A stretch of 64,000 nt of DNA from Eledone cirrhosa (Eukaryota). Within the stretch, counting starts at the first letter, position 1; each line of letters opens with the position of its first letter. This document shows positions 1 through 47,262 of the stretch, one piece after another. Under the pieces are notes generated by a model, which searched no databases, was not told the DNA's origin, and was given only the letters and a program-made list of their open reading frames with translations. Position numbers and translations under genes: made by a program. The stretch covers positions 132,866,001 through 132,930,000 of the forward strand of contig OZ024741.1 in assembly GCA_964016885.1 (NCBI GenBank). The letters are read 5' to 3'.

Positions 1-803
1 TTCTACCTTTACTTCGTACGAACTTTCATGTAGCTTGTTTTAGATCTTTTAGAGTTAGCATTAGTATATATTTTTCTCGGGACTCAGAATTATTATCTCG
101 TATTAGTTCACTTTGCTGCACTGGGTGGTGGCTGGAATTGTGCCCGGGATGGAAACCTTTATTGTCTATTTCGTGGTAGTCTCTTTAGTATTTTGGCCTT
201 TGTTGACCCGTCACCGTATCATTTACGTACTTATACCTCTTAAAAGGGTCCTCGCCTTTTTCGTCCCACCTAGTTCTTTTACTTATTTCGTTATTTCTTT
301 ATTTCTTTCTTTACTTCTTTCTTTCTTTATTTATTTATTTATTCCAGACTAACAATAGCTAGAGACCTAGGTCGTAGAATTTAATTTACTTTACTTCTTT
401 CTTTACACTCATTTGTTTTTCTTTACACTTATTTGCTTTTCTTCACTCTTTCCTATATATTTCTACCCCCCATTGTTCTACCTACCGTTCCGACTTCCTC
501 CCCCTCCCCCTCCCTTGTATCTTCTTTGACCTCATGCCCAGCTGTAGCTGGCACTACAAACGCTTGATTGGGGCTACTCCACCCCCTCCCCTCTTTCTCC
601 TACTGGCTGGTTTAGCCACCATCTCCCCTACTAATTTGCAACCACAGAATTACTACTGATTTTTGACAATCACTTTGACCATATATGGAATTACCCCTTG
701 AGAAGATCGGCTATTTAAATACCAGGATAAATTTTCATTTAGTCCAGAATTAGCCGTCGAAACGGCTTGAGCTCAGCTGTCGGGGTCTTACTGGTTCCTA
801 TTA
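1..803 (+). mobile_element. 3' part of a putative Penelope-like (PLE) or retrozyme-like element, pyrimidine-rich, ending in a hammerhead ribozyme and abutting a (TA)n array
   Basis: Non-coding C/T-rich tract leads into a hammerhead fold (693-786). Its last ~60 bp recur at 1229-1344 in both orientations. A terminal repeat with a hammerhead plus an inverted partial copy is the known PLE pLTR arrangement. No RT or GIY-YIG ORF is visible in the window. Confidence 0.55.
693..786 (+). ncRNA. Type I hammerhead ribozyme, U3-A8 core variant
   Basis: Stem I ACCCC (693-697)/GGGGT (782-786); core TTGAGAA (698-704); stem II GATCGGCTA (705-713)/TAGCCGTC (751-758); GAAA (759-762); stem III CGGCT/AGCTG; GTC triplet with predicted cleavage after C781. 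Confidence 0.75.
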
Positions 804-844
804 TATATACATATATATATATACATATATATATATACATATAC

Positions 845-877
<33 letters not shown>

Positions 878-938
878 CACATATATACATATATATACAT
901 ATATATATATATATATACATATATACATATACATATAC

Positions 939-989
<51 letters not shown>

Positions 990-1002
990 CATATATATAT
1001 AC

Positions 1003-1033
<31 letters not shown>

Positions 1034-1073
1034 CATATATATATATACATATATATATATACATATATATACA

Positions 1074-1143
<70 letters not shown>

Positions 1144-1148
1144 CATAT

Positions 1149-1344
1149 ATAACGAAGGAAATGTGGTAAGGAACCAGGTGGACCATAACGCACCAAAGTA
1201 CTCAATACTTGAGGTAGTAGAGTGGGTAATAGGAACCAGTAAGACCCCGACAGCTGAGCTCAAGCCGTTTCGACGGCTAATTCTGTCCAGAATTAGCCGT
1301 CGAAACGGCTTGAGCTCAGCTGTCGGGGTCTTACTGGTTCCTAT
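1149..1344. repeat. Inverted plus direct partial copies of the 3' end of the element at 1-803, forming a perfect 57-bp-arm palindrome
   Basis: Arm 1229-1285 is the reverse complement of arm 1288-1344, with a 2-nt spacer TC. The right arm equals 745-801. Confidence 0.9.
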
Positions 1345-1348
1345 ATAC

Positions 1349-1411
<63 letters not shown>

Positions 1412-1475
1412 CATATACATATATATATATATATACATATATAAGATCAAAAGATGGTTAAAGGAGTTCCATGTA

Positions 1476-1542
1476 TTTTATTATGCGCATTTCAAAAGCA
1501 AACATCATCATGCAATAATATTTGTGTTTTCATCAGATAAAA
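1476..1542 (-). ncRNA. Minimal type I hammerhead ribozyme with palindromic stem III
   Basis: Minus strand reads TTTTAT CTGATGA [AAACACAAATATTAT...ATGATGTTTGCTTTT] GAAA TGCGCA TA ATAAAA: canonical core, 6-bp stem I, palindromic TGCGCA. It lies in a ~300-bp insert (1443-1737) between TA arrays. Confidence 0.65.
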
Positions 1543-1842
1543 CAGGAGAACATGATATGAAGGCTAAAAAACACTTGTGGATAGTGCAGTTTTAAATCAA
1601 CATTAATCTTATATTATGTATACTCTAGTCCTACAAACTGTAGAGTGCTTATTATGTATACTCTAGTCCTACAAACTGTAGAGTGCTTCTTATCCGATAT
1701 CTGCATTGCTTTATTGTACTACAATAAAACTCACCTCCTACATATATATACATATATATATACATATATATATATACATATATATATATACATATATATA
1801 TATACATATATATATATACATATATAAATATATATATATATA

Positions 1843-2165
1843 TATTGTTATACTTTGGGAGGGTTATGTTGCCAATAAGAAACACATGCACCAGTTGCTT
1901 TCACAGTTGTTTCACAGAAACAAGATGGCGTAGGACAGAACAACGAAGAGGCACAAAAACAAAGAAAAGAATCCCCAGTCACTGAAGAAGTCACAGAATG
2001 TGTGACGAAAGAACTTTGACAATATATAAACAACCATCTGGTTGTGGAACCAACCAACCAACCGGAAATTTATAAATTTATAAATTTATTATAATAAATT
2101 GAAGTGAAAGCAACGAGTGCGTGTGTTTCTTATTGGCAACATGACCCTCCCAAAGTATAACAATA
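1843..2165 (+). mobile_element. Short PLE-like element with ~60-bp inverted ends and an internal minimal hammerhead fold (1978-2020)
   Basis: 1843-1904 is an imperfect reverse complement of 2104-2165. Internally GTCA CTGAAGAA GTCACA gaatg TGTGAC GAAA GAAC TT TGAC. TA arrays flank both sides. A homologous copy lies at 38463-38725. Confidence 0.6.
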
Positions 2166-2190
2166 TATATATATACATATATATATATAC

Positions 2191-2257
<67 letters not shown>

Positions 2258-2414
2258 CATATATATATATACATATACATATACATATATATATATATAC
2301 ATATATATATACATATACATTATTATATACATATATACATATACATTTATATATACATATACATATACATTATTATATACATATACATATATACATATAC
2401 ATTTATATATACAT

Positions 2415-2465
<51 letters not shown>

Positions 2466-2546
2466 CATATATACATATATACATATATATATATATATAC
2501 ATATATACATATATATATATATATACATATATACATACATATATAC

Positions 2547-2619
<73 letters not shown>

Positions 2620-2620
2620 T

Positions 2621-2880
2621 GAAGGGGCATGGCTTAGTGGTTAAAGCATTGGGCTTGCAATCGAAAGGTTGTGAGTTCAATTCTCGGGCCGGGTGATGTG
2701 TTATTTCATTGAACAAGACACTTTATTTCACGTTGCTCAGCTCTAGAAATGAGTACCGGCCTGCCCGCCCAGCCAGTGGGATGGCGTTATCTTATGGCTA
2801 AAACAGCACGACATGCTGTGACCAGCGGCGCCAATTGACGCCCGATAGACTGGTCGGTCAAGGTGATCAAGGTGATATAC
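2621..2880 (+). mobile_element. tRNA-derived SINE, CORE-like family. Further copies at ~7505-7700 (+), 17666-17960 (+), 24477-24800 (+), 27095-27270 (+), 28290-28525 (-), 30980-31225 (-), 41844-41990 (+), 42155-42460 (+), 48820-49035 (-), 49610-49770 (+)
   Basis: A box TGGCTTAGTGG and B box GAGTTCAATTC, followed by a (cc)TTGAGCAAGACACTTTATTTCAC-like block resembling the CORE domain; recurs many times. Confidence 0.75.
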
Positions 2881-3882
2881 ACACGCACATATGTATGTAT
2901 ATATAAACACACACACACCTCTATATATATATATACATACACACACATATGTATGTGAAGTGTAGTGATCTACATAATGAAAGCACCCAGTACACGCTGT
3001 AATGTGCTTGGTGATAGGAAGGGCATCCAGCCATAGAAAGCCTGCCAAACAAGGGGTTGAGAGGACCCTACAGTTTGTGTCAAAAGACACAACTTCTCTT
3101 GTGCATTTGATTGACTGTATGACTGTATGTAAGCAAAATACAGACTCTCGGATGTCTTGGAGGCCAGTACCCCTGTCCAACACTTGCTAGCAGGGAAAGT
3201 GGACATTTAACGATGCTGATAATATACATATCCTCACCATCTAATAGTTATTTCATTATCAAGATATTATTTGTAACACAATTCATGAAAAAGTTCTTTA
3301 ATCAAATTATTTTGGAAGATTTTAATTTAATAAGGAACCCATTAAAATTCTGTCCAACAGGACCTGCTGGAAGATGTGTCTGAGGACTCTGCCTACACAA
3401 CCCTTCCAGGATGAGGAGGGGTAGGATAGTGAGGAGACCCATTAAGATAGTTGATTTTATTTCATGGAATCAAAGGCAGTATTGAGTGTGTTAATATCAA
3501 AAGGGTTAATAAATGTCACAATAATCGTTTCTCCTTGACAAACTTGGAAATTTATAGTTTTAAAGATAACTCACTTCATTGGTACAGGAATACTTATTTG
3601 CAATGAGCTATGAAAAAAAGAGAAGAAAGGACTGAACTGATGCTATATTCGACCCATAACCTTTAACTTAGCTATGATCCAGTTGATCAGTCATTCATTC
3701 ATTTAGTATGCCTTGTCATTTCAGAACAGGAAAACAGGAAATTTCTTATTCTTAATCCAATCAAAGTCCTTGTAACCTTTATCAATGTTCTGATATTTTC
3801 TACATCCCTCACTACATTAAAATAAAATAAAAAGTAAAACTACAAAATAATATTGCTCACATTGTGGTAAAAACTAGAAGTG

Positions 3883-4200
3883 GTGGTGGATTGGCAGGAT
3901 TATTAGTGTTACAGATAAAATACACTGCAGTATTTTGACATGGTCCTTACTGTTACAGATAAAATACACTGCAGTATTTTGATATGGTCCTTACTGTTAC
4001 AGATGAAATACGCTGCAGTATTTTGATACGGTCCTTAGTGTTGCAAATAAAATATACTGCAGTATTCTGATACAGTCCTTAGTGTTCTGGTTTCACATCT
4101 TGTGGAGGTCAAATTTGCCTTTCAACCTTCCAGTAAAATACTGTGGTTCTATATAATCGACTTTCCCCTTCCCCTTAAGATTGTTGACCTGGTGCCTAAA
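3883..4200 (+). mobile_element. tRNA-derived SINE (Meta/MESC-like domain family) with an internal 4 x 44-bp tandem expansion (3907-4082)
   Basis: Head GGTGGATTGGCAG; unit starts at 3907, 3951, 3995, 4039; then a degenerate B box, GAGGTCAAATTTGCCTTTCAACC and the family tail. Confidence 0.7.
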
Positions 4201-4602
4201 TTATGGTCAAAATTCTTTCTGAATGTAGCCTAGTTACTACAACAGTGTTTCCTAAAATGGGTCTTGTGAAAAGATTTGGTGGTTCCATAAGATAAGATGT
4301 CTTAATAAAATTTAATAAAAACATTTTTTTTAATATGGACAAATTCCTTCTCTAGAATAATTTAGGTTCCAAAATTTGAAATTTATTTGCTTTTATTATG
4401 AAAAGCTGCCAATAAAATAAAATAACTGAATAAATTGGGTAATTTACTGGTAAAGGCAGGAAAAAAAAGTGAACAGAGATGCTTGCAGGCAATGAAACCA
4501 GGCATCTGCTGTATGCTGGACAGCTACAATAGACATTACACTAAAATGACTGAGCCAACTTTTTATTACTTAAATAGAAATGTAAATAAATTGATTATAG
4601 TC

Positions 4603-7393
4603 AATGGGTAGATAAGGTAATTGACGTAAATAGAGTGAATGACACAATAATCAAAATAAGACTAGTTCTAAATAGAACTACTGTGACAATAATATCCGCT
4701 TATGCACCCCAATCTGGTCTAGCTGACGTTATAAAGGACAGGTTCTATGACTCGCTAATGCGCACTACCTCCCAAATAACTGACAGCGACTACTTAATTA
4801 TTGCTGGCGACCTAAACGGTCACATTGGACAACATAGTGATGGCTATCATGGAATCCATGGAGGCTATGGGTTTGGAAATAGAAATGAGAAAGGTTTCAG
4901 AATCCTGGAATTCTGTGACGCAAATAACCTAACTATCTGTAACACAAACTTCAAAAACCGAGAAAACCACTTGATCACCTATAGATCAAGGGAACACGCC
5001 AGCCAGATAGATTATATCCTTACTAGAAGACGTGACAAAGTGTCTGTTGTAAACACTAAATCCCTCCCCCATGAAGAATGCACCTCCCAACATGGCCTAG
5101 TAGTTAGTGACCTCATAGTCAGTAATAGACGTACTCGACGGCAGAGGACTACCTTGAGGAGAAGAATATGGAAGTTGAAGGACCCCATAGCCAGTGACAA
5201 ATTTAAAAGCTTATTACTTGATGCCTTTGACAATAAGGAAGAGCAATTAGAGACGTGCAATATTAAATGAAGAGAATAAATGGGAAAAAGATAGTCTGCC
5301 CCAAATCGATCCAATAGAAGGACCAGCAGTGCAAGTTAAAGTAGTATAATAAGTAAGGCAATCAAAGATATAAAGACAGGCAAGGCAGCTGGGCCTTCGG
5401 AGATAGTTGCTGAGATGTTGAAGGTATCTGGAATGGTGAGACATACTATGGTCACCCGTATAGTAAACCAAGTAATACAGAATGGGGTCATACCAAAAAA
5501 CTGGCGTAGCAGCATCATCATTAACTGCTACAAGGGTAAAGGGGATGCTCTAGATAGGGGAAACTATAGAGGCATTAAATTAGTTGACCAGGTCATGAAG
5601 GTCACAGAAAGAGTTATAGCGCAACTAATCAGAGAGCGAATTGATCTAGATGAAATGCAGTTTGGGTTTGTGTCTGGTAAAAGTACCACAGACACTCTTT
5701 TCCTTGTACGACAACTACAGGAGAAGTACTTAGCTAAAAGTAAACTCCTCTACTTAGTTTTGTAGACCTGGAGAAAGCCTTTGACAGAGTCCCCCGCTCC
5801 ATTATCTGGTGAGCTCTTAGAAAACTAGGTGTAGATGAATGGCTTGTGAGAGCTATACAAGCTATGTATAAAGAAACAGTCAGTAAGGTTAGAATTAACC
5901 ATGAATATTGTGAAGAATTTAATGTAAAAGTTGGTGTTCATCGAGGCTCTGTCCTTAGCCCCCTCCTATTTATTATTGCCCTTCAGGCTATAACAGAGGA
6001 GTTCAAGACCGGCTGCCCATGGGAACTTCTATACGCAGATGATCTAACTCTCATAGCTGAATCTATGGCGGAACTAGAGAAATTCCAAACATGGAAGCAT
6101 GGCCTAGAATCAAAAAACCTTAAAGTTAACGTGTCTAAGACTAAAGTTCTAGTTTGTAGAAAGGAAAATATGGCACAGGTGCCATCAGGGAAATGGCCAT
6201 GCTCAGTTTGTAGGAAAGGAGTAGGCAGAAATTCCATTTTATGTCCTAAATGAGTATGGGTACATAAAAGATGTAGTGGGATCACAGGTAAACTATCTAA
6301 GAACGTAGATTTTATATGTGGCCGATGTTCAGATGCAATAAGTAGCAAGTGCCCACAGGATACTAGTTCCTTCTATAGAAATAGTGGACTCTTTCCGTTA
6401 CCTGGGTGACAAAATCAGCAGTGGTGGAGGGTGCTCTGAAATTACAGTAGCCAAAGTCAGAACGTGATGGAAAAAGTTCAGAGAGCTTATACTGCTGTTG
6501 GCCACAAAAGGTTTCTCTCTAAAAATGAAAGGCAGATTGTATGATGCATGTATACAAACAGCAATGTTACATGGCAGTGTGACATGGGCATTGCGTGCAG
6601 AGGACCTGCGTAGACTGGAAAGGAATGAAGCATGCATGCTTCATTGGATGTGTAATAGTAATATACGTGAACGGCAAAGCATAAATGAACTAAGTGAGAA
6701 ATTAGTAATAAGAGGGATCAGATGCTGTTTACTTGAGAGAGGACTACGTTGGTATGGTCACGTGATGCGCATGAAAGACGACAGCTGTATAAAGAAGTGC
6801 AGGGCGATCAAAATTGATGGAAGTTAAGGAGTAGGTAGACCCAGAAAAACCTGGAACGATTTGATAAATTCCGACCTTACACACTTGCACCTCTCTAAGA
6901 CAATGTCACTGGACCGAGATCTTTGGCACTACGCAGTAATACAGAAGACCCGCCTTGCCTATGTACAAAGCGAAGCCTACAGTCAGTAGGCATCTCTTAA
7001 CCAAATATACACTCCAATCCACTACCCCTACTCTATCCTCTAACTTTAAAGTTGGTACCACAACCCCTACTCTATCCTCTCTCTTTAAAGTTGGTACCAC
7101 AACATTCAGTCCTAATAAATGAGATAATGAGATCAAGATCATGTAGGTGTCACAACAAAAAAAAACACACAGTCCACGCTGTAATGTGGCCATGTAGGTA
7201 ACACGGTAAAAAGGTCCCACTCCACACTGTAAATGTGGTTGGTGTTAGGAAGGGCATCCAGCCGTAGAAAACCTGCCAGATAGTCCTATATGAACGAGAC
7301 ACGATCACCCGCCCAACCCTACCTCAAGTGGGACAACTCCCGTCTAACCCATGCTAGTGTGGAAGATGGACATTAAACGAAGATGATGATGAT
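4603..7393 (+). mobile_element. RTE-clade LINE copy 1, older and diverged, 5'-truncated, internally deleted, pseudogenised
   Basis: ORF pieces 4635-5270 (AYAPQ, GDLNGH, IDYIL endonuclease motifs), 5415-5765 (NYRGIKL, QFGF), 5846-6253 (GSVLSPLLF, YADD) and 6498-6827 (LRWYGHVMR). 3' UTR contains GGAAGGGCATCCAGCCGTAGAAA and ends in a (GAT)n tail. Confidence 0.95.
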
Positions 7394-7929
7394 GTATGAA
7401 TTCAGACAGCTTTTCATAATAAAATCAAATAAATTTCAATTTCTTTGTAAATGTATCAGTTAATTTTTCTTTCCCTTAATGTCTGATTAAAATTAGGGTG
7501 AAAGCATCACATGGCTTAATGGTTAGACAATTGCATTCACAATCGTGAAGTTGTGAGTTTGATTCCCAGACTTTATTTCATGTTGCTTTTTCTACCAGGA
7601 GTTGTGACTGGTAGATCATATCAGCAATGGAAAGACTAATGGAATCAGTTTCCTTGGTCTGATTGGAAAAGTTCCACCCCACTGTGATTTTGTCGATTGT
7701 TTTAAAAAAAAAAAAAAAAAAAAAAATTAGGGTGATGGGGATTGTCTGTAAAATATATACGAATAGGCAGACTAATATTTAGAAAATTGCTTCAGGGTTC
7801 CATGACAAAATAAATTTGGAATGTACTACTCAACAATAATAACCAGGCAATGATTATCAATCAATACAAGAGCATCATCAGCATACTTATTTCTACTTTA
7901 CAGAGTAGCATAGGTTGAAGCGACCTCCT

Positions 7930-8215
7930 CTTACTCATACATTCCATATTTGGCATGATTTCTATGGCTGGATACTCTTCCTAAGACCAATTGCATTACA
8001 GAGATTTTCATGGCACCAACACTATAACTTTACAGAGTGGACTGGGAGCCCTTTATCATGGAACAAGCATTACCACTTTACAGAGTGAACTGGGTACCTT
8101 TATCGTGGAACCAAAACTACAACTTTACTGGGTATATTGGGTTCCCTTTATCGTGGCACCAACATTACCACTTTACACAGTATACTATGTGCATTTCATT
8201 GTGGTACTAACATTA
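7930..8215 (-). repeat. RTE 3'-UTR-derived fragment with tandem ~41-bp module (CCACTTTACAGAGTGGACTGGGT-like units)
   Basis: About 4-5 diverged units; the same module occurs in the LINE 3' UTR at 53101-53180 and at 62361-62590. Confidence 0.65.
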
Positions 8216-13025: not shown

Positions 13026-13383
13026 GAAAAAACGAAGTTTTGTTTAGATGTTTTTATTATCGACCTGTTAAGTACGTTTCACAAATGATTGGCTCAAGGT
13101 TACCCTGGTGATTCAACAAAACACAGAGTATATACATCCTGCCCTGCCTGCACATCGAGTGCTCATATTGGTACCACCACCAATTATAATTCACTGAATT
13201 ATCTATACTATATATATATATATATGAGGAGCAGTGATGTCACATGAGCAAGATTAGAAGAGGGCATCTAGCTGTAGTAACCAAGCCAGAAACAGTTCTG
13301 TATACAGTCACTTAATCTCACAATGAGACAACCTCTCTAAACCATGCTAACCTGGAAAATGGATGTTTCACCACCACCACTGC

Positions 13384-15560
13384 TTGTACCCATGAGAGGT
13401 CGGGTACTCTGTATTACTGCGTGACACCAGAGGTCACGGTCGTGTGTCATCGCCTTTGAGAGGTGTAATTGTGTAAGGTCGGCTTTTATCACCTCATCCC
13501 AGGTCATCTTGGGTCTCCCCACTCCGCGGTTTCCATCGACTTCTAGTGTTCTGCACCTTTTTATGCAGCTGTCATCCTTCATACGCATCACATGTCCATA
13601 CCAACGCAACCGCCTCTCCTGCACACAGCATTTGATTCCTCTTATGCTCAGTCTCTCTCTCTCAATTCATTTATGCTTTGTCGTTCGCGTATATTACTAT
13701 TACACATCCATCGGAGCATGCAGGCTTCGTTTCTCTCTAATCTACGTAAGTCTTCCACCTTCAGCGCCCAGGTCTCACTACCATGCAACATCGCTGTTCG
13801 GATACACGCATCATACAGTCTGCCTTTCATTTTGAGGGAGAAGCCTTTTGCAGCTAGCAGTGGTAGTAGTTCCCTAAACCTCTTCCATCCCGTTCTTACC
13901 CTAGTTATTGTACTTTCTGAACACCCACCTCCGCTGCTAATTCGGTCACCTAGGTAGCAGAAGCTGTCTACAGAGCCCTCTCAGAGATTGGTGGTACTTG
14001 TTTCCTGTGGCTGTTTGCTGCTTGCTGTCCCAGCACAGCTGCTGCATGTGAAGCCTACATTCTTAATTAAGCTTCCTGAGATCCCGCTACATCTCTTGTG
14101 CATTTGGGGCAGAGAATGGAGTTCCTACCTACACCTTTCCTACATACTGAGCAAGGCCATTTCCCTGAGGGTATCTGGGTTCTGTCTTCTCGTCTACTTA
14201 CAAGGACCTTAGTCTTTGTCATGTTGACTTTGAGACCCTTTCTTTCTAGTCCCTGCTTCCAAGTTTGGAATTTATTCTCTAGTTCTACCATAGATTCAGC
14301 TATGCGAGGTCATCAGCATACAGGAGTTCCCATGGGCATCCGGTCTTAAACTCCTCCGTTATTGTCTGCAGGACTATGATGAACGGGGGGGGGGGGGCTA
14401 AGAACAGAGCCCTGGTGGACCCCAACCTGTACGCTAAATTCCTCGCTATACTCATTGCTAATCCTAACTTTGTTGACTTAGCTAAGTATACTTGTCGCCT
14501 AGCTTCCCTCTTGGTCTCTATGTAATGTACCCTGCTTCCCCCATTCTTCCATTCTTTCCATGCCTGTCTCTTGGCCTTAACTGCCTCATCTACCTTATTG
14601 TTCCACCACCAAGTCACTCTCCTCCTGCTTGTGGTCTTACTCCAGCCACAGACCTCATCCGTCGCCTCTAGTAAGTTATTTTTTAGGAACTCCCAGTTCT
14701 CTTCTACATTGAATGTCTCTATCTGTTCTTCTTTACTGTCGTAGGCGTTGAGTAAAATATCTTTAAATCTGTTACTGGTTGAGGGGTCTTTCAGCTTCCA
14801 GATCTTTCTTCTCCAGGTTGGCCTCTGTTTCCAGGTTCGTCTAGTTCTAACTGTGAGGTCGCTGACAACTAAGCTATGTTGGGATGTACATTCCTTACTA
14901 GGGAAGGCTTTTGTGTTTACGATCGTCCATCTGTCACGTCCTCTGATGAGGATAAAATCTATCTGACTAGAATGCTCCCCTGATCTATAGGTGATCACGT
15001 GGTTGTCGGGTTTTTTGAAGTTTGTGTTACTTATCGACATGTCATTGGCGTCGCAGAATTCTAGAAGTCTGAATCCTTCCTCATTTCTTGTGCCAACCCC
15101 ATGGCGTCCATGGACTCTATTGAAACCGTCGCAGTGTTTACCTACATGTCCGTTAAAATCTCCTGCGATGATTAGGAAGTCATTGTCGTTTGTTAGAGCA
15201 GTAGTGTGCATTAGGGACTCGTAAAACCTATCCTTAAGTTCGTCTGGCAAACCCGATTGGGGTGCGTAAGCTGATATTATTGTGGTAATTGTTTTATTCA
15301 GGACTAGTCTGAGTTTAATGATTCTTGCATTTACCCTGTACACTGAGATTACTTTATCTACCCACTTGTCAGCTAGTAGTATACCTACACCACCCATCCC
15401 ATCGTCATTTCCCACCCAGAAAAATTTGTAGCACCGACTTTTTCCTACAAGGACTCTAGCAGACTCTCCTCTCCATCTAGTCTCTTGTACACAGCATACA
15501 TCAATTTCCTTTCTCTCTAGCATTTCTACGATTTCTCCTGCTCTTCCTTTCATTGTGCTG
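13384..15560 (-). mobile_element. RTE-clade LINE copy 2, young, highly similar to copy 3, with multiple internal deletions
   Basis: ORF 14300-15553 carries a complete EN (CVQETRW, AYAPQ, GDFNGH, IDFIL) joined to RT remnants (YADD). C-terminal ORFs at 13337-14291. 3' UTR missing. Confidence 0.95.
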
Positions 15561-15884
15561 GAGTTTTGATGATATATATAATAATGGAAAAAGCATAAGC
15601 ATATATATATATATATACATATACATGCACAATTGTATGTTTATACAGACATGAACATATGATACCAGGAGGTTATAGCAAAGCCTTGACAGCAAGATGA
15701 CCTCTTCTGTCACCAAATGCTATATATAACATACCAAGTCAAGTGTTTTCATCAAAATACCAACACTATAGTTGGTTTGGAATGCTGGAAACGTTGCGCT
15801 CTCTCTCTCTCCTACACACTTGATGTGTATCATTACACCATTTTCTATGAATGGAGAGGGTACCACAGACAAAGTTGATACTTA

Positions 15885-22866: not shown

Positions 22867-25800
22867 ATATAGAGAACCAGCTTTTGTAGATGGTGATTTA
22901 GCAATAAATCTAATATAATTATTACAACTGAGATCTTTAGAAAAAGTTAAAGTTAAAATACAAAAATGGCAGACATGTCTTTAGACTGAACAGAATAAAT
23001 ATAAAAGATGCATCTATACAAACACATGTTAAGACGAACAGAATAGAGAAAGAAAATTATAATTCTGGACTTGAATATGGCTTTTTGAACTCAATACTAA
23101 AACCAATTTGTGATTGGAAAACACAATACATAATTAACATTATCTTGTTAATTTCATTAAAACAAAATCTAGTAACTTGGCAAATTAAACAAAGCATTTC
23201 ATTATTACTATAGCCATCACTCAATGAAGTATGACTTGGTGCTATGCACCATACTTTCATTAAGGGTCTTAGGTGACCAAACAGTCACAAGTAGACACAG
23301 ACACCCTCTTGATCCAATGGAACTTCTAAGATGTCACAGCACTGGGCTGGTACTTTCTTTATCAAACCGAAAAGGATGAAAGGTGACGTAGACCTCAGTG
23401 GTACTTGAACTTAGAACTAAGAGACCCAGAACAAATATCCAACATGACAAGTGTGTCACCAGTCATTGTCAAAGCTTTAAACTTTGTAATCTTTTTACCC
23501 ATTCCTTTGCATGAATTGCATTTGATATATGAATTGCTATAAATTTTGACAGTATAGATTCACTGGTTTCTTTTAAGAAATTTTTTTAGACAGGGGCAAT
23601 GAACCAGTGTTTTATATTCTCTGAATCTGAGAAGCATTTGTAATGTAATGACTATTTTTAACATTCTATGAATGTTTTAAATCTTTTAGCCATCATTTAC
23701 CATACAACGTGCATGTATTATTTGACACAAACATGTAAAACATACTGCACAAAATTAGATTTAGAACTACACAAGCATTGTCCCTGTGTTATTGTTTAGC
23801 TCATGGTCTATCCAGAGTAAGCAGATTAAAGGGTTCCCACAACACCATCCCATTATTCCTTTCAGTTATATATAGTAAAATAATTTCAAATAGGCAATGC
23901 AACCATGTAGAGGCTATCTCATTGGATCAACATCCAATATGGTAGGTTGAATGATTTCCAGTGTACTAGATTATTGTTGATTAGAGTCCTTTGATGATAA
24001 AATTTAATAGATATTCTCTACAGAGTAAACATATTCTCAAAGACATCATTGCTAAACCAAAGCATTGATTAGAGAAATTCTCTTTTTAACACGTCAATTC
24101 CTTCATTTCCCCAGTAGCAATCATGTATTTTGTATAAAATATCTTCAAGCTGTTGTTCTATTCTCTCCAGTTAGGCTGGAGTTTGAATACAAAAAACATT
24201 TATATGAATCAATGGCTAATGTTAAAAATGAACAATTGTCATTGGATTCCAAATATAACACTTGCTGTAGTTGTCTTTCAATATAATCAGTAGGAGATAT
24301 TGTTAATATGCAGACAATAAACAGTTTGAGATTAATGCTAAGTTTAACTGCAACATTATATAATGGAAGTAAATGAAATATACTGCCTGATATATTCTTC
24401 TTTTATTTTGCACTTAATACTGAATAAAATATATTTATACATTATAATATATCTGTTCAGAATAAACTGAGAAATAAATGGCAACATAGCAAAATGGTTA
24501 GAAAGTTTTCTTCGCATTCATTGGGTCCCAGGTTTGATCCCACTGTGTGACATCTTGGGCAAATGTAATTTACTACAGCCTCGGGTCAATGCATGCCTTA
24601 TAAGTGAAATTGGATAGATGGAAACAGTTTGGAAACCTGTCGGGTGAATTGTACCTGTAATTCAAAGGACCAGTCTAGTCACACACTATGCCATGCTGAA
24701 TGTCACTGAGAAATTACACTAAGGGTATATGTTAATTTTACGAGTAGACTGTTCCATTAATCAAACAACTGGAACATTCATCATCAAAACTGATGATGGT
24801 TCAGTGAATTGAAAGTTAAAAGACATGGGGTTTTTTTTTAAAGTTGAAATTTTGTTCCTTTTTTTTTTTTTTAATAGAATTTCAACTGAAGAGAAATGGT
24901 AACAGCCATAGGCTTTTCAAAGCATCCTACACTGACACATTGAGATATGAAAAGCAACATATCCCCTAATCTCTTCATTTTTAAACTGATTGTCATAGTT
25001 ATGTTGTTATCTAACTCCAGGTCAATCCTAATCAATCAGACCTATAATCAAAAGCATTACAGCTATGACCATCTCTGATCCCTACCATTCATATCTAATG
25101 CTATTCAATGTGTATCCTTCCTTCTTCTTCGCCCATTTATTCCTGGGAGGTTTGAGGGGCTGGATCCCCAAGTGAGACCAACCAAGCTCATGGATGTTAT
25201 CCAACCATCTTGCTCAGATTCTACCCCTGGGTCTCCTGGAAGTTGGTTATGCCCATAAAATCTGTACAGCGATTTTATAGGCAAAACCAACCTTCCCTTT
25301 TTAGAAACAAACAGTTTTGTATTGTCAAACACAAACTGAAGTTTGAATTTACATTAAATATGGTAGTTAGACATGTTTAATGAATATTGCACTAAAGTGA
25401 CACAGCTTTATTTCTTTTTAAGTACGTTTTTCCTTAAGGGCATCGCTTGAATGGGTGTACATATCTGAATAGTTACGATATTATCTGAAACAGGTGTTAA
25501 CAGGATTTCCTAACATTAATTTCTCAATTATATAAGAAGGAATTTGAAAGTAAATACAATAAAATTATCTACAGGTGTTATGCTGTAGCATTAATGATAA
25601 CAACAACAAAAATTCCTTTGACTATGTTGTTGGGGGTATTAACATCCTGTAATGGTTTTAAAAAATATTTCAAAACCAGTTTGTTAATTCAAATGTTTAT
25701 AATATCTTTACTAGTGTGCAGATTGTTGTGAAAATTTACAGTATTAAGGTAAAGGCTTTATTTTTTAATGTGATGTAGTTATAGTGCTGTTTTGTACTTT

Positions 25801-34499: not shown

Positions 34500-35490
34500 G
34501 ATTAGATAAATGATATTTTCTCTTGGCCACTAGGATAGATCATATTGTCCCTTGGCCGATAAGATAGATCATATTGCCCCTCAGCCAGTAAGATAGATCA
34601 TATTTTTTCTGGGGCCAGTAAGATACATCATATTGTTCTCTCAGCCAGCAAGATACATCATATTGTTCTCTCGGCCAATAAGATACATCATATTGTTCTC
34701 TTGGCCAGTAAGATACATCATATATTGTCTCTCAGACAGTAAGATAGATAATATGTTCTCTCGGCCAGTAAGATAGATCATATTCTCGCTCGGCTAATAA
34801 TATCTCTCAGCCAGTAAGATAGATCATATCCTCGCTCAGCCAGTAAAATTGTCTCTCAGCCAGTAATATTGTTTCTCAGCCAGTAAGATAGATCATATTC
34901 TCACTCGGCTAATAATACTGTCTCTCAACCAGTAAGATAGATCATATTCTCGCTCAGCCAATAATACTGTCTCTCAGCCAGTAAGATAGATCATATTCTC
35001 GCTCAGCCAATAATACTGTCTCTCAACCAGTAAGATAGATCATATTCTCGCTCAGCCAATAATACTGTCTTTCAACCAGTAAGATAGATCATATTCTCGC
35101 TCAGCCAATAATACTGTCTCTCAACCAGTAAGATAGATCATATTCTCGCTCAGCCAATAATACTGTCTCTCAACTAGTAAGATAGATCATATTCTCGCTC
35201 AGCCAATAATACTGTCTCTCAGCCAGTAAGATAGATCATATTCTCGCTCAGCCAATAATACTGTCTCTCAACCAGTAAGATAGATCATATTCTCGCTCAG
35301 CCAATAATACTGTCTCTCAACCAGTAAGATAGATCATATTCTCGCTCAGCCAATAATACTGTCTCTCAACCAGTAAGATAGATCATTTTCTCGCTCAGCC
35401 AGTAATATCATCTCTCAGCCAGCTCAATCATATTTTCTCTCGACCAGTAATATCGCCTCTAGGCCAGTAATATAGCCTCTAGGCCGGTAA
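34500..35490. repeat. Minisatellite: ~30-bp units grading into a homogeneous 49-bp (30+19) higher-order repeat
   Basis: Period 30 at about 34560-34740; period 49 (AGTAAGATAGATCATATTCTCGCTCAGCCAATAATACTGTCTCTCAACC) at about 34880-35400; about 19-20-bp units at the right edge. Confidence 0.92.
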
Positions 35491-35679
35491 ATAGTAAATA
35501 AATAATTAAAAGAATTTTCATTAATTTTCTTGGAATTAAGTATTTTTGCTTCTGAACTGAATATTATTATTAAACAACTGTGGGGCTATTTACAATTTAT
35601 CAGCATGTTATCTGTCAATGCCTGATAGTTTATCAGAAGAGATGGAGCAACAGCATCAAAAGTAACATAAGAATCAGCA

Positions 35680-38250: not shown

Positions 38251-38462
38251 TTGAACAATTGTAGTTGTTATCTTATAGTTTAGGTCAATGATATAAATAC
38301 TGGGGCAGAAGGAGAATCAATGGATTAACTACACTTTAGGTTAATAATATACCCTATATACTCAGATATAAGTCAATCTGAATATAAGCCCACTATATCA
38401 TATCTGAGAAATGGGAAAAATCTAAACCCCATTTATAAGTCAAGGCAGCTAATTAACACAAT

Positions 38463-38725
38463 ATAGTTATACTTTGGGAGGGCCATGCTGCCAATCAAAA
38501 CACACACCTGTTGGTTTTCACTTCAATTTATTATAAATTTCTAGTTGGTTGGTTGGTTCAATAAGATAACCGGATGGTTGTTTATATATTGTCAAAGCTC
38601 TTTCGTCACACATTCTCTGGCCTCCTCAGTGACTGGGCTTTAATTTTGTGTCTCCCCTTTGTTCTGTCTTACACCATCTAGTTTTTGTGTGTTGTGCACT
38701 TGGCTTGCACATGCGTTACATCCAG
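38463..38725 (-). mobile_element. Second copy of the 1843-2165 PLE-like family, with a hammerhead fold at 38591-38633
   Basis: Minus strand reads GTCA CTGAGGAG GCCAGA gaatg TGTGAC GAAA GAGC TT TGAC (stem II partly decayed). Shares the end TATACTTTGGGAGGG; adjacent to (GT)n/(TA)n. Confidence 0.6.
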
Positions 38726-38761
38726 GTGTGTGTGTGTGTTTTTATTTATTTATTTATGTGT

Positions 38762-38793
<32 letters not shown>

Positions 38794-41700: not shown

Positions 41701-42903
41701 CCCAGGAAAGCATGAGAAAGCATGGAAAAGCAGATGTATGATGAGGAGGATAATGATGATTACAGCAAAGTATACATAAGAAATAGTGTGCAATAATAAT
41801 TTGGGTTACATATATAATATCAGTTTATGAAGGAGATTATGTGAAGGTGTGCAGTCTAGTGGTTAGGGCATTGGTCATATGATCCTAAGATCTTTGGTTT
41901 GATCCTGGGAGAAAGTAACACATTGTGACCTTGAGCAAGACACTTCATATTGCTCCAACTGTCTCAGCTGAAAAGAATGAGTAACAGCATTAGCTGAGGG
42001 TCAATCACTTGACTCAATATGAACCTAGGATAAGCTCTTGGCTCCATATGAAGCTGAGATAAGCTATGACCTATTAACCTTCTAGGCTCAAGAAAGACTT
42101 GATTAAACATATCAGAGAAATGATGCATGTGAATATAAAGAAATAGTGGACACAACATGGCCGAATGGTTAGGAAGTTTTCTTTGCGATAATTGGGTCCC
42201 AGCTTTGACCCACTGTGTGGAATCTTAGGTAAGTGTTATTTACCATAACCTCAGGTCAACCCAAGCCCTGTGAGTGAAACTGGGTAGATGGAATTAATAC
42301 AGAAGTCTATCAAACGGACTGTATCCATAGTTCAAAAAGCTAGCCTTGTCACACACTGTGTTATGGTGAATTTCCAAGGGAATTATGTTAAGAGTACACA
42401 TGTCTGTGGAATATTCAGCCACTTACATATTAATTCATGTGTACACTGTTCTGTTAATCGTATTTATCACACTTTATCACTATCCATTTTAAAAAATACA
42501 CAAAAATATTGAATGCAGAATGTTAGGTTCTTACACAATTATAGTGCCCCTTTCATTGTCATCAGCTAACTATACTACCTGACGGCAATAAATTGCCCAA
42601 ATAAGGACAAAAACAAAGTAAAGAACAAAAAAGAAAAAAAAAATGAAAAATTAAATTAGTGCAAGGACAAATTCTTAAAAGAAAGTTATGGGAAAGTTAG
42701 TTGAGTTTAGTTCGCAGCTAAAGCTAAATACGCTTGTCAACTTGGCAAGAATAATAGCTCCTTGACCAAAGGTTATGCTAACTGAAAATATTGTCAGCAG
42801 ATGAAAAGAATAAGAATGGACTTCTAAGGATGTAAATTCTATAGGACAAAAAATACACTTGAAGAAGCTAAGATTAACACAAACAACACATAATCAACAC
42901 ACA

Positions 42904-42955
<52 letters not shown>

Positions 42956-43089
42956 TTTATAATGATCTATTTTTAGAAAAGTTGAGTGGATATGTATTTA
43001 TTGAACATTTAGAAATTTCAAGGGATTTTTTTTTTTTTTTTTAAGGAATGAAAAATAGTCAAACAAATTGGGCACAACAGTTCCTGAAC

Positions 43090-43143
<54 letters not shown>

Positions 43144-43243
43144 CGATGATGCCAACTTTCACTGTTCAGGAGCTGTTATACCAAATTTTTTTAGACTATT
43201 TTTTTATACTCTCTCCCTCCTACCAGGGAAAGCAGACATTAAG

Positions 43244-44216
43244 TGATCATCATCATCATCACTGTTTTACATCCATTCTTCCATGCTAGCATGGCTTAGA
43301 CGGGTTGTCCTGTTGTGGGCAGTGCCCGGTCGGCTGACCTTGTCTTGCTCATACGGGAACTGATTTTGGCTCGATTTCTACAGCGGATGCCCTTCCTAAC
43401 ACCAACCTCATTTACAGTGAGTGGTGGGTGCTTTTTTTCCATGGCTCCTACACAACCACTTTACAGTGTGGGCTGGGTGCTTTTTTGCTCCACAACCACT
43501 TTTCAGTGCGATGGGGTGGGGGCATATTGTCAATATGCTTCAGCCTCGGCTTGTACCCGTGGGAAGTCGGGTCTTCTGTATTACTGTGTGACGCCAGAGG
43601 TCACAGTCCTGCGTCATCTCCTTTGAGAGGTGTAATTGGGTAAGGTCGGCTTTTGTCACCTCATCCCAGGTCTTCTTGGGTCTCCCCACTCTGCGGCTTC
43701 CATCGACTTCTAGTGCTCTGCACCTTTGTATGCAGCTGTCATCCTTCATACGCATTAAATGGCCATACCAACGTAACCTCCTTTCTTGCACACAGCATTT
43801 GATTCCTCTTATGCTCAGTCTCTCTCTCTCAATTCGTTTATGCTTTGCCATTTGCATATATTACTATCACACATCCATCGGAGCATGCAAGCTTCATTTT
43901 TTTCTATTCTATGCAAGTCTTCTACACACAACTCCCAGGTCTCACTACCATGTAACATTGCTGTTCGTATGCACGCATCATACAGTCTGCCTTTCATTTT
44001 GAGGGAAAAGCCTTTTGCAGCTAGCAGTGGTAGTAGCTCCCTGAACTTCTTCCATCTCGTTCTTACCTTGGCTACTGTACTTTCCGAACACCCACCTCCA
44101 CTGCTAATTCGGTCACCTAGGTAACAGAAGCTGTCTACTGTTTCTACAGAGCCCTCCCAGAGTTTGGTGGTGTTTGTTTCCTGTGGCCAATTGTTGCTTG
44201 CTGTCCCGATGCAGCT
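43244..44216 (-). mobile_element. RTE-clade LINE copy 4, 3' ~1 kb with 3' UTR and (GAT)n tail
   Basis: Minus-strand ORFs 43815-44231 and 43540-43857 (FCYLGD, LRWYGHLMR) closely match copy 3. Confidence 0.93.
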
Positions 44217-44754
44217 CCACTGGGAGGTCAACTGGGAAGCTCATGATTATCTCATTCTTCGACAGCAAGAGCATCATCTACATCAACTGGGTCCCCCACG
44301 GCCAGACAGTCAACAAAAAGTAGAGGCTTTGAGGTAGTTCATTGCAAGAGACCAGAACTCTTCAAGTCTGGTCAGTGGCACCTGCACCAGGACAATGCCC
44401 CCTGCTACAAATCCACCCTGGTGACTAACTACTTGGCTGATATGGAGATCAAGACTATCCCTCAGTCCAGGCTTAGCCCCATGCGACTTCTGGATGTTCC
44501 TGGAGTTGATGGAGAAACTCAGGAGTATCCGCTTTGAGGATGTGGAGGGGATGAAGGAGGCTGTGACAAATGCCCTGAACACCTTCACTTTGGAGGACTA
44601 CAAGGGGACCTTCCAGAAGTGACTGGAGTACTACAACAACTTCATTGAAGTTGGGGGCATCCTACTTTGAAGGAGACTAGAGAGTTTTGCATTGATCTGA
44701 GTTAAATAAATGTCTCTCCGATAAAAGTCCTCAAAACCTCTTGAGTGTACCTCG
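44217..44754 (+). pseudogene. Mariner transposase relic (C-terminal half) with right TIR
   Basis: Reads HLHQDNAP and LSPGLAPCDFWMF...RFEDVEGMKEAV, matching the mariner HDNA and YSPDLAP.DF motifs; in-frame stop and frameshifts; ends ...GTGTACCTCG|TA. Confidence 0.85.
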
Positions 44755-47182
44755 TATATAATAATTTCTGTCACAATATAATATATAGAAGGTAACCTTC
44801 TAATATATAAATAACAATTATTTCAAATTCATCTGTACCTCTGTCAGTTGTTTTGAAAATCCAGAGACGAAGGAAGTAAAACTGGACACTACTTTCCTAA
44901 TTATTTACAATCTTTTCTCTAAACCAGATATTTCTACAATTACAACTCAACCATCTGTCCTGTCTGATTTTTAACAATACAAGAAAGAAATTTTAACCGT
45001 TTAGTGTTCAAACCGGCCAGAATTCTCTACCTCTTTCTGTTGAAACTGGCTGTAACTGGTCGTTCAAACTGATGTTAAGGTATTGTTCTCAAAATAAATA
45101 CCTTCAAAATCTCATAGATTCGATATTATGTGAGATAATTATGTGAGGTAAAGCCTTTACCATGAAAATATAACAGTATAAATAGAGTAATGTGAATGCT
45201 AAAGAGTTAAACAAGTTCTGTTGGTAGAAATGTCACAGCTATGTCATAGTGAAATCAAACCTATTCTCACTCAATAGAGAGATTAACTGCCAACATTTAA
45301 TGTAATATGTGGGTGTCACAATAAAAACAAGTTACAATGACGGAAAAAAATGTGTCTAAGGAAAGAGACATTGTAAATATTTTTTTGTAAGACTGTTTCT
45401 ATTGACAATATCTTTTTAATGTAACCTGTTGCTATGGAGATCATTTAGTACAATGGTTGCAAGGACTGGCAATCAAATTTGTTCGTGAAATAAACATATT
45501 ACTTTATATGAAGTATTGTATGATATATGGTTATTATGATTGTTTGGGGAAACTGATACAATGCAAATTAGAAATACATAGGTAAAAACAATAAAATAAG
45601 GAAAATATAACAGAACAACACTTTTTAACTATATTTGATTATATCTCGTGGATTGGACTATTTTTTCAAAAGAAAGGAAATGGGGTGTGATGTTCACAGC
45701 AAGATATTGTTACCAATTGTCCCAATGACATTTATTTCAAAATATCTGAAAATTTTAGAATACACAAGTTAAAACAACAATTTCTGATACTTATGTTTGA
45801 TGGCAAAGCACAAAAGATAAAATTAACACTCACTCTTGGTACTTTGCAAATGAAGTGAGGATACAGCTTACACTCACTCTTGGTACTTTGCAAATGAAGT
45901 GAGGATACAGCTAACACTCATTCTTGGTACCTTGCAAATAAAGTGAGGATACAGCTGGGTGATTTGCTAATACCTTCGCCAAGCACTACAGAATGATTTT
46001 AGCCTAATACTATAAACAAATTAAATACTTGGTGCTACTATTGTGGGAAGCAACTCGTAAGAGACACAGTAGAGGAAGACCTGCTTGAACATTCATCGAT
46101 CAACTCTCAGATGAAACAAATCTCAGCAGGGAACAGTTGTCAAAAACAATAGAAAATTGTGAATTGTGGAGACTTTGTCAGGAATGTTTGACTGTGGTCA
46201 CAATGATGATATACAGTAAACCAACTACATTTCCATTGTACCTATTTTATACAGCTATATAACAGATACAAAATTATATATATTGAATAAACTGAGGAAT
46301 AGCAATTCAATGTAAAAGATACAAAAGGTCACCACTTCTATAACCTAGTTGAGAGCACCATGATATTTATGCATATTTATTTCAAGAGGCTAACATGGCT
46401 GTAAGTTGGATTTGCAATCACATGATTCTAGGTAGGAATCCACTATGGGAAGTGTCTTCTATCATAGCTTCAGATTGACCAATGTTTTGTAAGATGAATT
46501 TTGTAGGTAGAAATTGTGCAGAAACCTGAGAAAATATGTAAGTGTATGTACATGTGTGTGTGTGTGTGCTTTGTAGACAGAAATTGTGCAAAAACCTGTC
46601 AAATATGTAAGTGTATGAACATGTGTGTGTGTGTTCATGTATGTATGTGTACATCTTTTTGTGGAAGTGAATTTTTCAACAAAAGATGTAAACATTAGTG
46701 AGAAAACTGATAAAGCAGTGCATTTGAACAGTAATATGCTGCCCTATTTATTCCCTGTGAGTTACACAGATACTTCCTCATTTCATCACTGTAAATGCAA
46801 TGAACTAATGATATTGTTTACAAAACCTGATATAATTATTTTTGAAAAAAAAAATATATATATATATAGAGAGAGAGAGAGGGATATATATATATATATA
46901 TAGTACCATAGAACAACCACTATTATAGACACCATATATATTTCCGTGGGTACTTAGTACCTACTGGAATATCTATACCATTTATCTGAATTCTCCTTAA
47001 TGTAGAGAAAAAAATGTATCATGCTGCTATTTCTAGCAACATGAAATATCAACGAGTCTATAATTCCCGCTTTTTCTAACGGCCCATTTGTGTGTGGGTC
47101 ATTTTAACGGCTGGATTCATTCACTGGGCAGAAAGCGATACATCTACATCTACGTGGATTTATATCTAGTAGGTTTGGAAAA

Positions 47183-47262
47183 GCTATCTGAAGAGCTATA
47201 TCTTTCCATTGGAAATTCTCTGAATTTCCAATCTTTTGATAAGCGAAACCGTCGGTCATGGC
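47183..47262 (+). ncRNA. Type I hammerhead ribozyme with canonical core, within a PLE-like fragment (~46903-47337) between TA arrays
   Basis: Stem I GCTAT/ATGGC; CTGAAGA (47188-47194); stem II GCT..AGC extended by a perfect 11-bp hairpin ATTGGAAATTC/GAATTTCCAAT; GAAA (47245-47248); stem III CC-GTC-GG; GTC triplet with predicted cleavage after C47257. Confidence 0.75.

Follow-up and report, generated by a model that had tools for sequence, protein, structure and literature searches.

The 64,000-nucleotide stretch of Eledone cirrhosa DNA analysed here (the window) raises the question of what kind of element left the short inserts with hammerhead ribozyme motifs beside its TA microsatellites, and whether these arrays are the target or the product of insertion. 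The inserts are probably truncated on their 5' side and represent the terminal parts (pLTR stubs) of four Penelope-like element (PLE) families unrelated to one another, copied into TA microsatellites that already existed.

Hammerhead motifs and chance level

The original prediction had placed five complete hammerheads in the window, and a descriptor search located all five type I topologies (H1 to H5). The core tested was C3UGANGA9 or its U3-A8 covariant, together with GAAA, UH and three stems in type I order. H1, H2, H3 and H5 have all of these parts in order; H4 requires stem II to be relaxed to one contiguous pair and is thus an incomplete fold, a copy of H3 that has decayed. Descriptors for type II and type III hammerheads gave 0 matches in the window.

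The chance level was taken from 200 block-wise dinucleotide shuffles, with descriptors that were fixed after the motifs were known. The descriptor with a canonical core and a compact stem III has 3 matches in the window versus a mean of 0.01-0.02 per shuffle, and 0/200 shuffles reach 3. When core variants were admitted (U3-A8 also allowed), as the original prediction had proposed, there were 5 matches versus 0.23-0.30 per shuffle (0/200 reach 5). One of these 5, an AT-rich match at 61369-61424, is probably due to chance; the matches of loose descriptors at 24786, 54383 and 61369, the stems of which are long or AT-only, were discarded on the same ground. The observed count was attained by none of the 200 shuffles in each of six descriptor settings.

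This result makes it extremely improbable that the motifs are accidents of AT-rich, palindrome-prone DNA, as do the core conserved in both copies of family C despite 75% overall identity and a compensatory change in stem I of family D. Accidental matches would be in keeping with the Rfam search, in which the hammerhead family is absent among 72 matches at E<=1, with the one probable chance match of the descriptor itself, and with weak fold z-scores in four of the five motifs (-0.96 for H1 and H3). H5 is the sole motif that folds better than its own shuffles, with z = -3.0 (-2.1 for the reverse strand). At minimum energy, H2 and H4 adopt folds other than the hammerhead, and H1 forms all three stems.

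Inserts of families A and B

Insert A1 (1..801, + strand) is pyrimidine-rich, contains no long frame in six-frame translation, runs to the window edge on its 5' side and abuts a TA array; it is likely a PLE 3' region/pLTR. Its type I hammerhead H1 (693..786, +) has the core TTGAGAA (U3-A8) rather than CTGANGA, a stem I of 5 bp, a stem II of 8 bp with a bulged U, and a stem III of 6 bp around the palindrome GAGCUC; the predicted cut falls after C781 (GUC). Two further pieces lie head-to-head at 1152-1344. A2 (1152..1285, - strand) is an inverted, 5'-truncated copy that includes the 3' half of the hammerhead and is identical to 745-801 at 57/57 positions, and A3 (1285..1344, +) is a direct 5'-truncated copy, identical to 742-801 at 60/60 positions. 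All three pieces are mutually 100% identical. Alignment reveals a tail of ~77 nt on A2 (1152-1228) that A1 and A3 lack; thus, one arm only is tailed.

Family A might be read as a young, still mobile, TA-targeting PLE whose U3-A8 hammerhead, with its full stem III, cuts efficiently as a monomer, in contrast to the minimal motifs usual in animal PLEs, which act only as dimers; this is rather unlikely. On the same reading, family A itself, or B and D as its relatives with unusually long arms, might be mobilised in the form of dedicated non-autonomous RNAs. If it were true, family A would offer a live system for asking what purpose the ribozyme of PLEs serves.

Insert B (1444..1741, - strand) has an array on both sides and an internal 38-bp tandem at 1612-1693. 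It carries H2 (1474..1544, -), a type I hammerhead with the core CTGATGA; the original prediction, counting fewer pairs in stem I, gave the limits of this motif as 1476-1542. Stem I has 8 bp, stem II has a weak A-U base, and stem III is the palindrome AUGCGCAU (dimer type), which gives a self-duplex of -10.5 kcal/mol and no hairpin in the monomer. The predicted cut is at 1482 (AUA). No inverted arm of insert B was found, and the support for B as a putative hammerhead element is the motif alone.

Insert C and its two copies

C1 (1913..2162, + strand) is a direct, 5'-truncated copy that stops at an array. It is preceded by an inverted arm (1846..1904, -), a head-to-head copy of its last 59 nt that matches 2104-2162 at 55/59 positions, and the junction of this arm carries a short duplication. 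The second copy, C2 (38466..38768, - strand), has no inverted arm; its homology to C1 covers 38466-38689, with 75% identity over 254 columns and a common 3' end. The minimal hammerhead H3 (1978..2020, +) of C1 has an extra nucleotide after A9, G10.1-C11.1, and stems II, I and III of 6, 4 and 2 bp, with a predicted cut after 2016. H4 (38591..38633, -) repeats this motif, except that its stem II contains two mismatches; these two differences between C1 and C2 disrupt pairs. Loop II contains an ATG in both copies, the frame of which closes after 31 codons in C2 and is frameshifted in C1.

The 59-nt inverted ends of C1 and the TA on its flanks could also be those of a MITE, that is, a DNA transposon that targets TA, ends in terminal inverted repeats of 59 bp and bears a hammerhead by accident. 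We regard this as very improbable. C2 has exactly the same 3' end but unrelated 5' sequence, so that the inverted repeats occur in one of two copies, and the short duplication at the junction of C1 is typical of a template switch.

Insert D in public reads

Insert D (46903..47336, + strand) is flanked by TA runs, and public reads identify it as a dispersed repeat, deepest in its 3' part. The depth in run X1 is 7.4 in the unique flank, 860-8,200 over 46903-47199 and 15,000-44,000 over 47200-47334, depth not being equal to copy number; the raw reads of run X21 number 0 in the flank and 30-2,035 across the insert. The comparison of reads over the insert left out the TA runs, and 16 matching runs with a share of <=0.07 were left out of the evidence. 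No RNA run is among those listed for 46660-47460; run X15, RNA by guess, provides 12 short pieces that leave the hammerhead core beyond 47187 uncovered.

H5 (47183..47262, +) is a type I hammerhead with a canonical core, a stem I of 5 bp, a long stem II hairpin and a near-palindromic stem III, ACCGUCGGU; the predicted cut follows C47257 (GUC). Two changes, A>G at 47186 and T>C at 47259, convert an A-U pair of stem I to G-C. They occur together in one X4 contig, and each is found in about half of the X21 reads spanning that position. Other differences in the motif are 47260 G>A, a one-sided change in stem I, and 47257 C>A, which is tolerated at H17; none of the 40 differences listed for the insert, which has 86 more beyond this listing, falls in the core or GAAA. 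Common changes at 47195-47200, taken alone, would break stem II of the H5 in the window, and they have no matching partner changes among the differences listed. On stem covariation, to which the original prediction had looked, the differences listed for D include one compensatory change in stem I, and the two copies of C show two pair-breaking differences in stem II.

D2 (47359..47458, +) is a separate repeat of ~100 nt and very high depth between TA runs. It has CTGATGA but no downstream GAAA, which places it outside the hammerhead descriptors, and the 0 matches to the type II and type III descriptors indicate that, by that criterion, it is not a permuted hammerhead. With CTGATGA alone, D2 could fit the Naiad clade.

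Probable relationship to Penelope-like elements

The claim that the repeat families are four and unrelated stood in part. C1 and C2 are one family, and the remaining pairs among 56 comparisons align only as short matches taken as chance (14-15 nt between A and C, 21 nt between C2 and D2; 1/100 shuffles each). Repeat status is demonstrated for A (three local pieces), C (two copies) and D (public reads), whereas B is present once in the window. By eye, A and D resemble each other in an 11-mer at the 3' end, which was unremarkable in the shuffle comparison.

The inserts show the anatomy of PLEs, with the hammerhead near the 3' end in the position of a pLTR. The 3' end is fixed and the 5' truncation variable among A1, A2 and A3 and between C1 and C2, and the depth gradient of D is in keeping with this. 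Head-to-head inverted, 5'-truncated copies are seen in A2/A3 and C1 (1846-2162), and not in B, C2 or D. As had been claimed, the inserts are non-coding, no coding frame having been found in any. A Pfam search of 149 of the 250 non-LINE frames (those >=64 aa) found no match to a reverse transcriptase (RT) or GIY-YIG domain, and the LINE, which served as a control, matched RVT_1 and Exo_endo_phos_2. Weak matches below the cut-off (TMEM175, TPR_Vps41, DUF918 and Transposase_1) were rejected, none being of PLE type. The named relatives of the LINE include proteins of Hydractinia, Gordionus and Branchiostoma (42-52%), and the SINEs, LINEs and microsatellites taken together give an octopus-like picture. 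A missing RT/GIY-YIG frame is what stubs are expected to show; because none was found, membership in the PLEs is assigned on the non-coding anatomy, and both the clade and the question of autonomy are matters of inference. The TA target suggests a parent of the Neptune type, a guess to which we give an even chance; Neptune elements are recognised by a CX2-5CxxC linker between RT and EN and by RT phylogeny. Scans of metagenomes with the patterns of families A and C returned 0 matches each.

The original prediction had called the elements non-autonomous. Dedicated non-autonomous elements, i.e., SINE-like or solo-retrozyme units derived from the pLTR, with short masters of their own and moved in trans by a PLE protein, would use the same machinery on another template; they are possible, though clearly less probable than truncated ends, and could be the right account of some of the four. 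No insert retains a coding remnant, even over the 800 nt of A, but long non-coding 3' regions would likewise yield ORF-free stubs. Over 46903-46983, the 5' edge of insert D, depth peaks a second time, as it might in such units; the depth of D nevertheless rises towards the 3' end, as truncation predicts. Parts of 10.64898/2026.07.22.740005 argue for pLTR-derived units, and passages of PMC3846280 treat trans-mobilisation by pLTRs; the 5' ends are, however, unequal among A1, A2 and A3 and between C1 and C2. Non-autonomy is thus unproven: 5'-truncated stubs of full-length PLEs fit equally, and the depth gradient of D favours them.

The original prediction had also invoked retrozymes. In the strict sense, these are non-LTR units of 150-450 bp, released from tandem transcripts by self-cleavage and then circularised and inserted anew. 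Although the type I hammerheads and the 250-430 bp inserts lie within the size range of the retrozymes described in the relevant part of PMC7229834, this origin is improbable: no head-to-tail tandem of any insert, with or without a hammerhead, occurs within the window, no joints on the stretch of D are among the read matches listed, H3 is a minimal motif of the PLE type, and the inverted arms and the tail are PLE marks.

TA arrays as target or product

Each of the five predicted cut sites has a TA-rich array no more than 200 nt away, compared with 12.3% of non-array positions, which bears out the tie between PLE-type hammerheads of unrelated families and TA arrays; the five sites make up only three independent clusters. 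Eight of nine insert 3' ends, D2 counted, sit directly against TA or TACA runs. That the inserts are bordered by arrays is correct on both sides for H2, H3 and H5. H1 has an array at its 3' end only, and the 3' end of C2, which carries H4, meets TATAT and no array; the array, (TA)12 at 38769-38793, lies ~80 nt past the 5' end of the homology.

Four (TA)n arrays with CA interruptions separate the inserts at 802..1151 (26 C, 0 G on the + strand), 1342..1443, 1742..1845 and 2163..2611, all of the same polarity and together containing 75 C and 0 G on the + strand. The arrays at 802-1151 and 1344-1443 each lie between two insert 3' ends on opposite strands, and their two halves contain 15/11 and 3/4 C, respectively, with 0 G throughout. 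Since the polarity is constant whichever way the inserts face, the arrays at 802-2611 were most likely targets and not products. The argument applies to CA-interrupted arrays, not to pure (TA)n runs. An RT related to telomerase could in principle make or extend TA/CA arrays at the 3' end of its element, which would account for 3' ends that directly abut arrays; PLE RTs are sister to those of telomerase according to a portion of PMC8557442. Tails made by the element should, however, flip polarity in mid-array, and both halves of 802-1151 and 1344-1443 contain C only. Array making is accordingly very improbable, and the "microsatellite-extending" of the original prediction is not supported, 3' ends entering these C-only arrays from both strands. 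Array polarity offers a cheap general way to tell target from product for microsatellite-linked elements.

Proposed mechanism

A GIY-YIG endonuclease encoded by the element would, from known PLE biology, nick AT-rich or (TA)n DNA. The RT would prime at the nick and begin copying at either of two internal positions in the element RNA, giving ends with or without the tail; it would usually halt after 60-450 nt and sometimes fold back or switch template, which would generate the inverted arm. The hammerhead would be copied because it lies about 15-140 nt from that 3' end; the distance from its 3' limit to the array junction is 15 nt in A, 30 in B, 142 in C1 and 74 in D. The four arrays at 802-2611 may be parts of a single long (TA)nCA array that successive insertions divided. 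In a tandem parent transcript, cleavage by H2, H3/H4 and H5 would require dimer formation or the assistance of a protein; a monomeric H1 could already adopt the fold. Stubs that stand alone in the genome are in all likelihood inactive.

Comparison with known systems

Hammerheads at PLE ends, the inverted and tailed structure and the microsatellite bias are already published in parts of PMC4209133, PMC8557442 and PMC3846280. Among the papers listed, none has hammerheads in the repeats of cephalopods as its subject, subscription papers, Repbase and Dfam being outside the scope, and these PLE families may be undescribed. The value of the result is mainly for annotation: short islands in the TA arrays of this genome are probably ends of several PLE families, and hammerhead descriptors find such islands where Rfam finds none. 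That they would be masked as simple repeats, as had been supposed, is doubtful, because TRF reports the arrays and not the inserts and because the annotation of Octopus vulgaris names PLE families (31 recently active Penelope-like families, as given in a section of PMC13282606).

Short, non-coding units with type I hammerheads are shared with the animal non-LTR retrozymes in the portions of Cervera and De la Pena 2020 (PMC7229834) and Li et al. 2026 (10.64898/2026.07.22.740005) that describe them, the latter arguing for their derivation from pLTRs; retrozymes are defined there by head-to-tail tandems and circular RNAs, and the window has no such tandem. The minimal hammerheads of metazoan PLEs in the relevant part of Cervera and De la Pena 2014 (PMC4209133) are, as here, of type I with a helix I of 4-5 bp. 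H3 and H4 share with them the extra nucleotide after A9 as well as G10.1-C11.1; H2 and H5 share the palindromic stem III that points to dimers, and the U3-A8 core covariant of H1 is a variant published there. A difference from the minimal form lies in the stem II arms of H1, H2 and H5, which measure 36-54 nt, and the 6-bp stem III of H1, foldable in the monomer, is unusual for a metazoan PLE and nearer to the fungal and protist PLEs of that account. The same pages report many unrelated families per genome, mostly as single motifs in truncated copies, which is likewise the case here; the present families differ in being known without a link to an ORF.

The EN+ PLE units in passages of Arkhipova et al. 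2013 (PMC3846280) and Craig et al. 2021 (PMC8557442) likewise have 5' truncation and a head-to-head inverted copy. The layout of A2/A3 matches the description in PMC3846280, an inverted pLTR plus an optional tail on one inverted copy, and Fig. 2 of PMC8557442, although the tail of ~77 nt in family A compares with 30-40 nt in the described elements. Target duplication is not discernible inside microsatellites in the latter account, nor is it in the TA arrays here. A (TA)n/microsatellite bias is described there for Neptune and Naiad PLEs; since Naiads, as characterised in that part of the paper, lack canonical hammerheads, families A-D are not Naiad-like on that feature. In the Poseidon element PAc of Anolis, whose hammerhead is protein-assisted and dispensable for insertion in the relevant sections of Frangieh et al. 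2024 (PMC11167929), the ORF begins in stem II; family C differs, its loop II containing an ATG whose frame is only 31 codons long in C2 and shifted in C1. The nicking of AT-rich DNA by PAc and its internal initiation at two sites, which makes the tail, supply the mechanism proposed here.

Hammerhead motifs and their predicted folds

A type I descriptor with the canonical core recovers three of the five hammerhead motifs, namely H2 (1474-1544, minus strand), H3 (1978-2020, plus strand), and H5 (47183-47262, plus strand), together with two loose matches. With descriptors tuned with the motifs already in view, a compact stem III gives H2, H3, and H5 only, compared with 0.01-0.02 matches per shuffle (0/200 block-wise dinucleotide shuffles reach 3), and three widened settings give 4-5 matches in the window, compared with shuffle means of 0.23-0.31 (count reached by 0/200 shuffles). 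One widened-descriptor match, at 61369, is AT-only and probably arose by chance. The canonical-core descriptor misses H1 (693-786) because this motif has the core TTGAGAA, a U3-A8 covariant known from the hammerheads of Schistosoma Penelope-like elements (PLEs) (PMC4209133); once this core is allowed, the stems of H1 are 5, 8, and 6 bp. H4 (38591-38633, minus strand) is accepted only when stem II is relaxed to one contiguous pair. The original prediction of five complete hammerheads thus holds for H1, H2, H3, and H5 and, for H4, only in this relaxed form. No hammerhead model is present among the 72 Rfam matches to the window at E ≤ 1.

H5 is the sole motif more stable than its own shuffles (z = -3.0; reverse strand, -2.1). 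The lowest-energy fold of H1 is a hammerhead, yet its z-score is -0.96; the best fold of H3 contains stems I and II (z = -0.96), and those of H2 and H4 are not hammerheads. The stem III self-duplex energies are -10.5, -11.3, -3.3, and +1.4 kcal/mol for H2, H5, H4, and H3, respectively, none of which has a monomer hairpin; such a hairpin is found in H1 only (-4.9 kcal/mol). From these predicted energies, H2 and H5 look dimer-dependent, H3 and H4 look like minimal hammerheads, and H1 looks monomer-capable.

Anatomy of the inserts

The motifs lie in four insert families (A to D), which are unrelated as proposed: no pair aligns beyond short chance-level matches in 56 comparisons. In family A (H1), 742-801 is repeated unchanged at 1285-1344 (60/60), and an inverted copy at 1229-1285 (57/57) continues for approximately 77 nt (1152-1228) that are absent from both direct copies. 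This head-to-head inverted copy with a one-arm tail is the arrangement of PLE end repeats described in PMC3846280 and PMC8557442, although the tail is longer than the 30-40 nt given there. The family C copies, C1 (H3; 1913-2162) and C2 (H4; 38466-38689, minus strand), are 75% identical and have a common 3' end. C1 is preceded by an inverted copy of its own last 59 nt (55/59 identical), whereas C2 is not, which fits PLE inversion rather than a MITE. Insert B (H2; 1444-1741, minus strand) and insert D (H5; 46903-47336) each have one copy in the window, the repeat status of D coming from reads. None of the inserts contains a long coding frame, and no PLE domain was found in the 149 of 250 non-LINE frames of the window that were searched.

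TA arrays

All five predicted cut sites, which form three clusters, have a TA-rich array no more than 200 nt away, compared with 12.3% of non-array positions, and eight of the nine listed insert 3' ends adjoin TA or TACA runs. The claimed tie to TA arrays is supported within the window and is looser at the 3' end of C2, which meets TATAT only. The four arrays in 802-2611 contain 75 C and no G on the plus strand, in both halves of each, and insert 3' ends point into them from both strands; the arrays at 802-1151 and 1344-1443 each lie between two opposed 3' ends. Since element-made arrays would flip polarity, these arrays were most likely not made by the elements, and the notion of microsatellite-extending elements is not supported. 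Most simply, repeated insertions would have broken up a single old (TA)nCA array.

Reads matching insert D and its neighbors

The region 46660-47460 was compared with 4 of 23 listed sequencing runs. In contigs of run X1, the unique flank has a depth of 7.4, compared with 860-8,200 at 46903-47199 and 15,000-44,000 at 47200-47334; raw reads of run X21 give a depth of 0 for the flank and 30-2,035 for insert D. Although depth over the insert is not equal to copy number, D is plainly a dispersed repeat bounded by TA runs, with short 3' pieces being the commonest. The comparison was limited to sequence outside the TA runs and, for other copies of D, to the insert itself.

No change in CTGAAGA or GAAA of H5 was found among 40 of the 126 differences. 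Together, 47186 A>G and 47259 T>C convert a stem I A-U pair to G-C; both occur in one contig of run X4 (depth 5.75, 47183-47318), and in minus-strand X21 reads they are seen in 43/88 and 31/73, respectively. Further, 47260 G>A changes U-G to U-A, 47223 A>G changes U-A to U-G, and 47257 C>A leaves the cut triplet valid. In stem II, changes are common at 47195-47200, with no partner changes matched to them. Approximately 2,700 X21 reads, a figure that may be inflated by reduced-representation sampling, match only about 47181-47219, the 5' half of H5; they differ from H5 at 47186, 47195-47197, and 47200 and diverge from the window on either side of this stretch. This suggests a probable, more abundant sister hammerhead family having just the ribozyme 5' half in common with D.

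Next to D, an approximately 100-nt repeat (D2, 47359-47458) lies between two TA runs; its X1 depth of 69,000-215,000 is far above that of D, and it is also present in X4 and X21. D2 contains CTGATGA without a downstream GAAA; it could represent the 3' terminus of a TA-targeting element, Naiad-like or of some other very abundant kind. A separate depth peak covers the 5' edge of D (46903-46983) and has loose ends at 46925 and 46962; it may represent either a fragment of a different repeat or a tail attached to D.

Genomic setting

The window has a GC content of 35.6% and abundant TA, CA, and trinucleotide arrays, and its overall repeat content looks octopus-like. A broken AP-endonuclease/RT LINE is present in four copies (4590-6960, 13337-15640, 43540-44240, and 50017-53047), and its named relatives include marine animal proteins (42-52% identity); the family is fairly young, given that 14479-15558 and 50017-51096 agree at 96%. 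A SINE-like repeat with a tRNA head (2618-2875; Rfam tRNA match of 31.1 bits at 2626-2691) adjoins the right edge of the TA array ending the 802-2611 cluster, with more copies near 7510, 27099, 28411, and 48920. A composite minisatellite (34504-35494) consists of related units of 30, 46, 49, and 20 bp, with 11.7 copies at 95% in the 49-bp part. An AT-rich island of 137 nt (42956-43092), flanked by two TA arrays and without a hammerhead match, is possibly another short insert.

Proposed origin and relation to known elements

By analogy with PLE work, an endonuclease would nick AT-rich DNA, reverse transcription would start within the RNA at one of two sites, giving a tail or no tail, and it would halt early, sometimes folding back. 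For the anole PLE, cleavage by the hammerhead is protein-dependent and dispensable for insertion in vitro (PMC11167929). The putative 5'-truncated stubs in the window are therefore most likely inert passengers whose tandem parents lie elsewhere. Because the 5' ends vary, we favor full-length PLEs as the putative parents over short non-autonomous masters. Neptune and Naiad PLEs are reported to favor microsatellites, and Naiads are described as being without canonical hammerheads (PMC8557442); Neptune-type parents are thus our leading guess for families A to D.

An ATG is located in hammerhead loop II of both family C copies (1998-2000 and its C2 counterpart), and the C2 frame from it runs for 31 codons before a stop; for comparison, stem II is where the ORF of the anole PLE begins (PMC11167929). 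In an annotation of Octopus vulgaris, 31 Penelope-like families are listed as recently active, with no reference to ribozymes (PMC13282606). PLE-end hammerheads, the U3-A8 core, inverted and tail units, and TA bias are already published, as are families of solitary hammerhead motifs within truncated copies. The set of families A to D may be new, as may the long stem II arms in H1, H2, and H5 and the monomer-type predicted fold of H1 within the apparently young family A.
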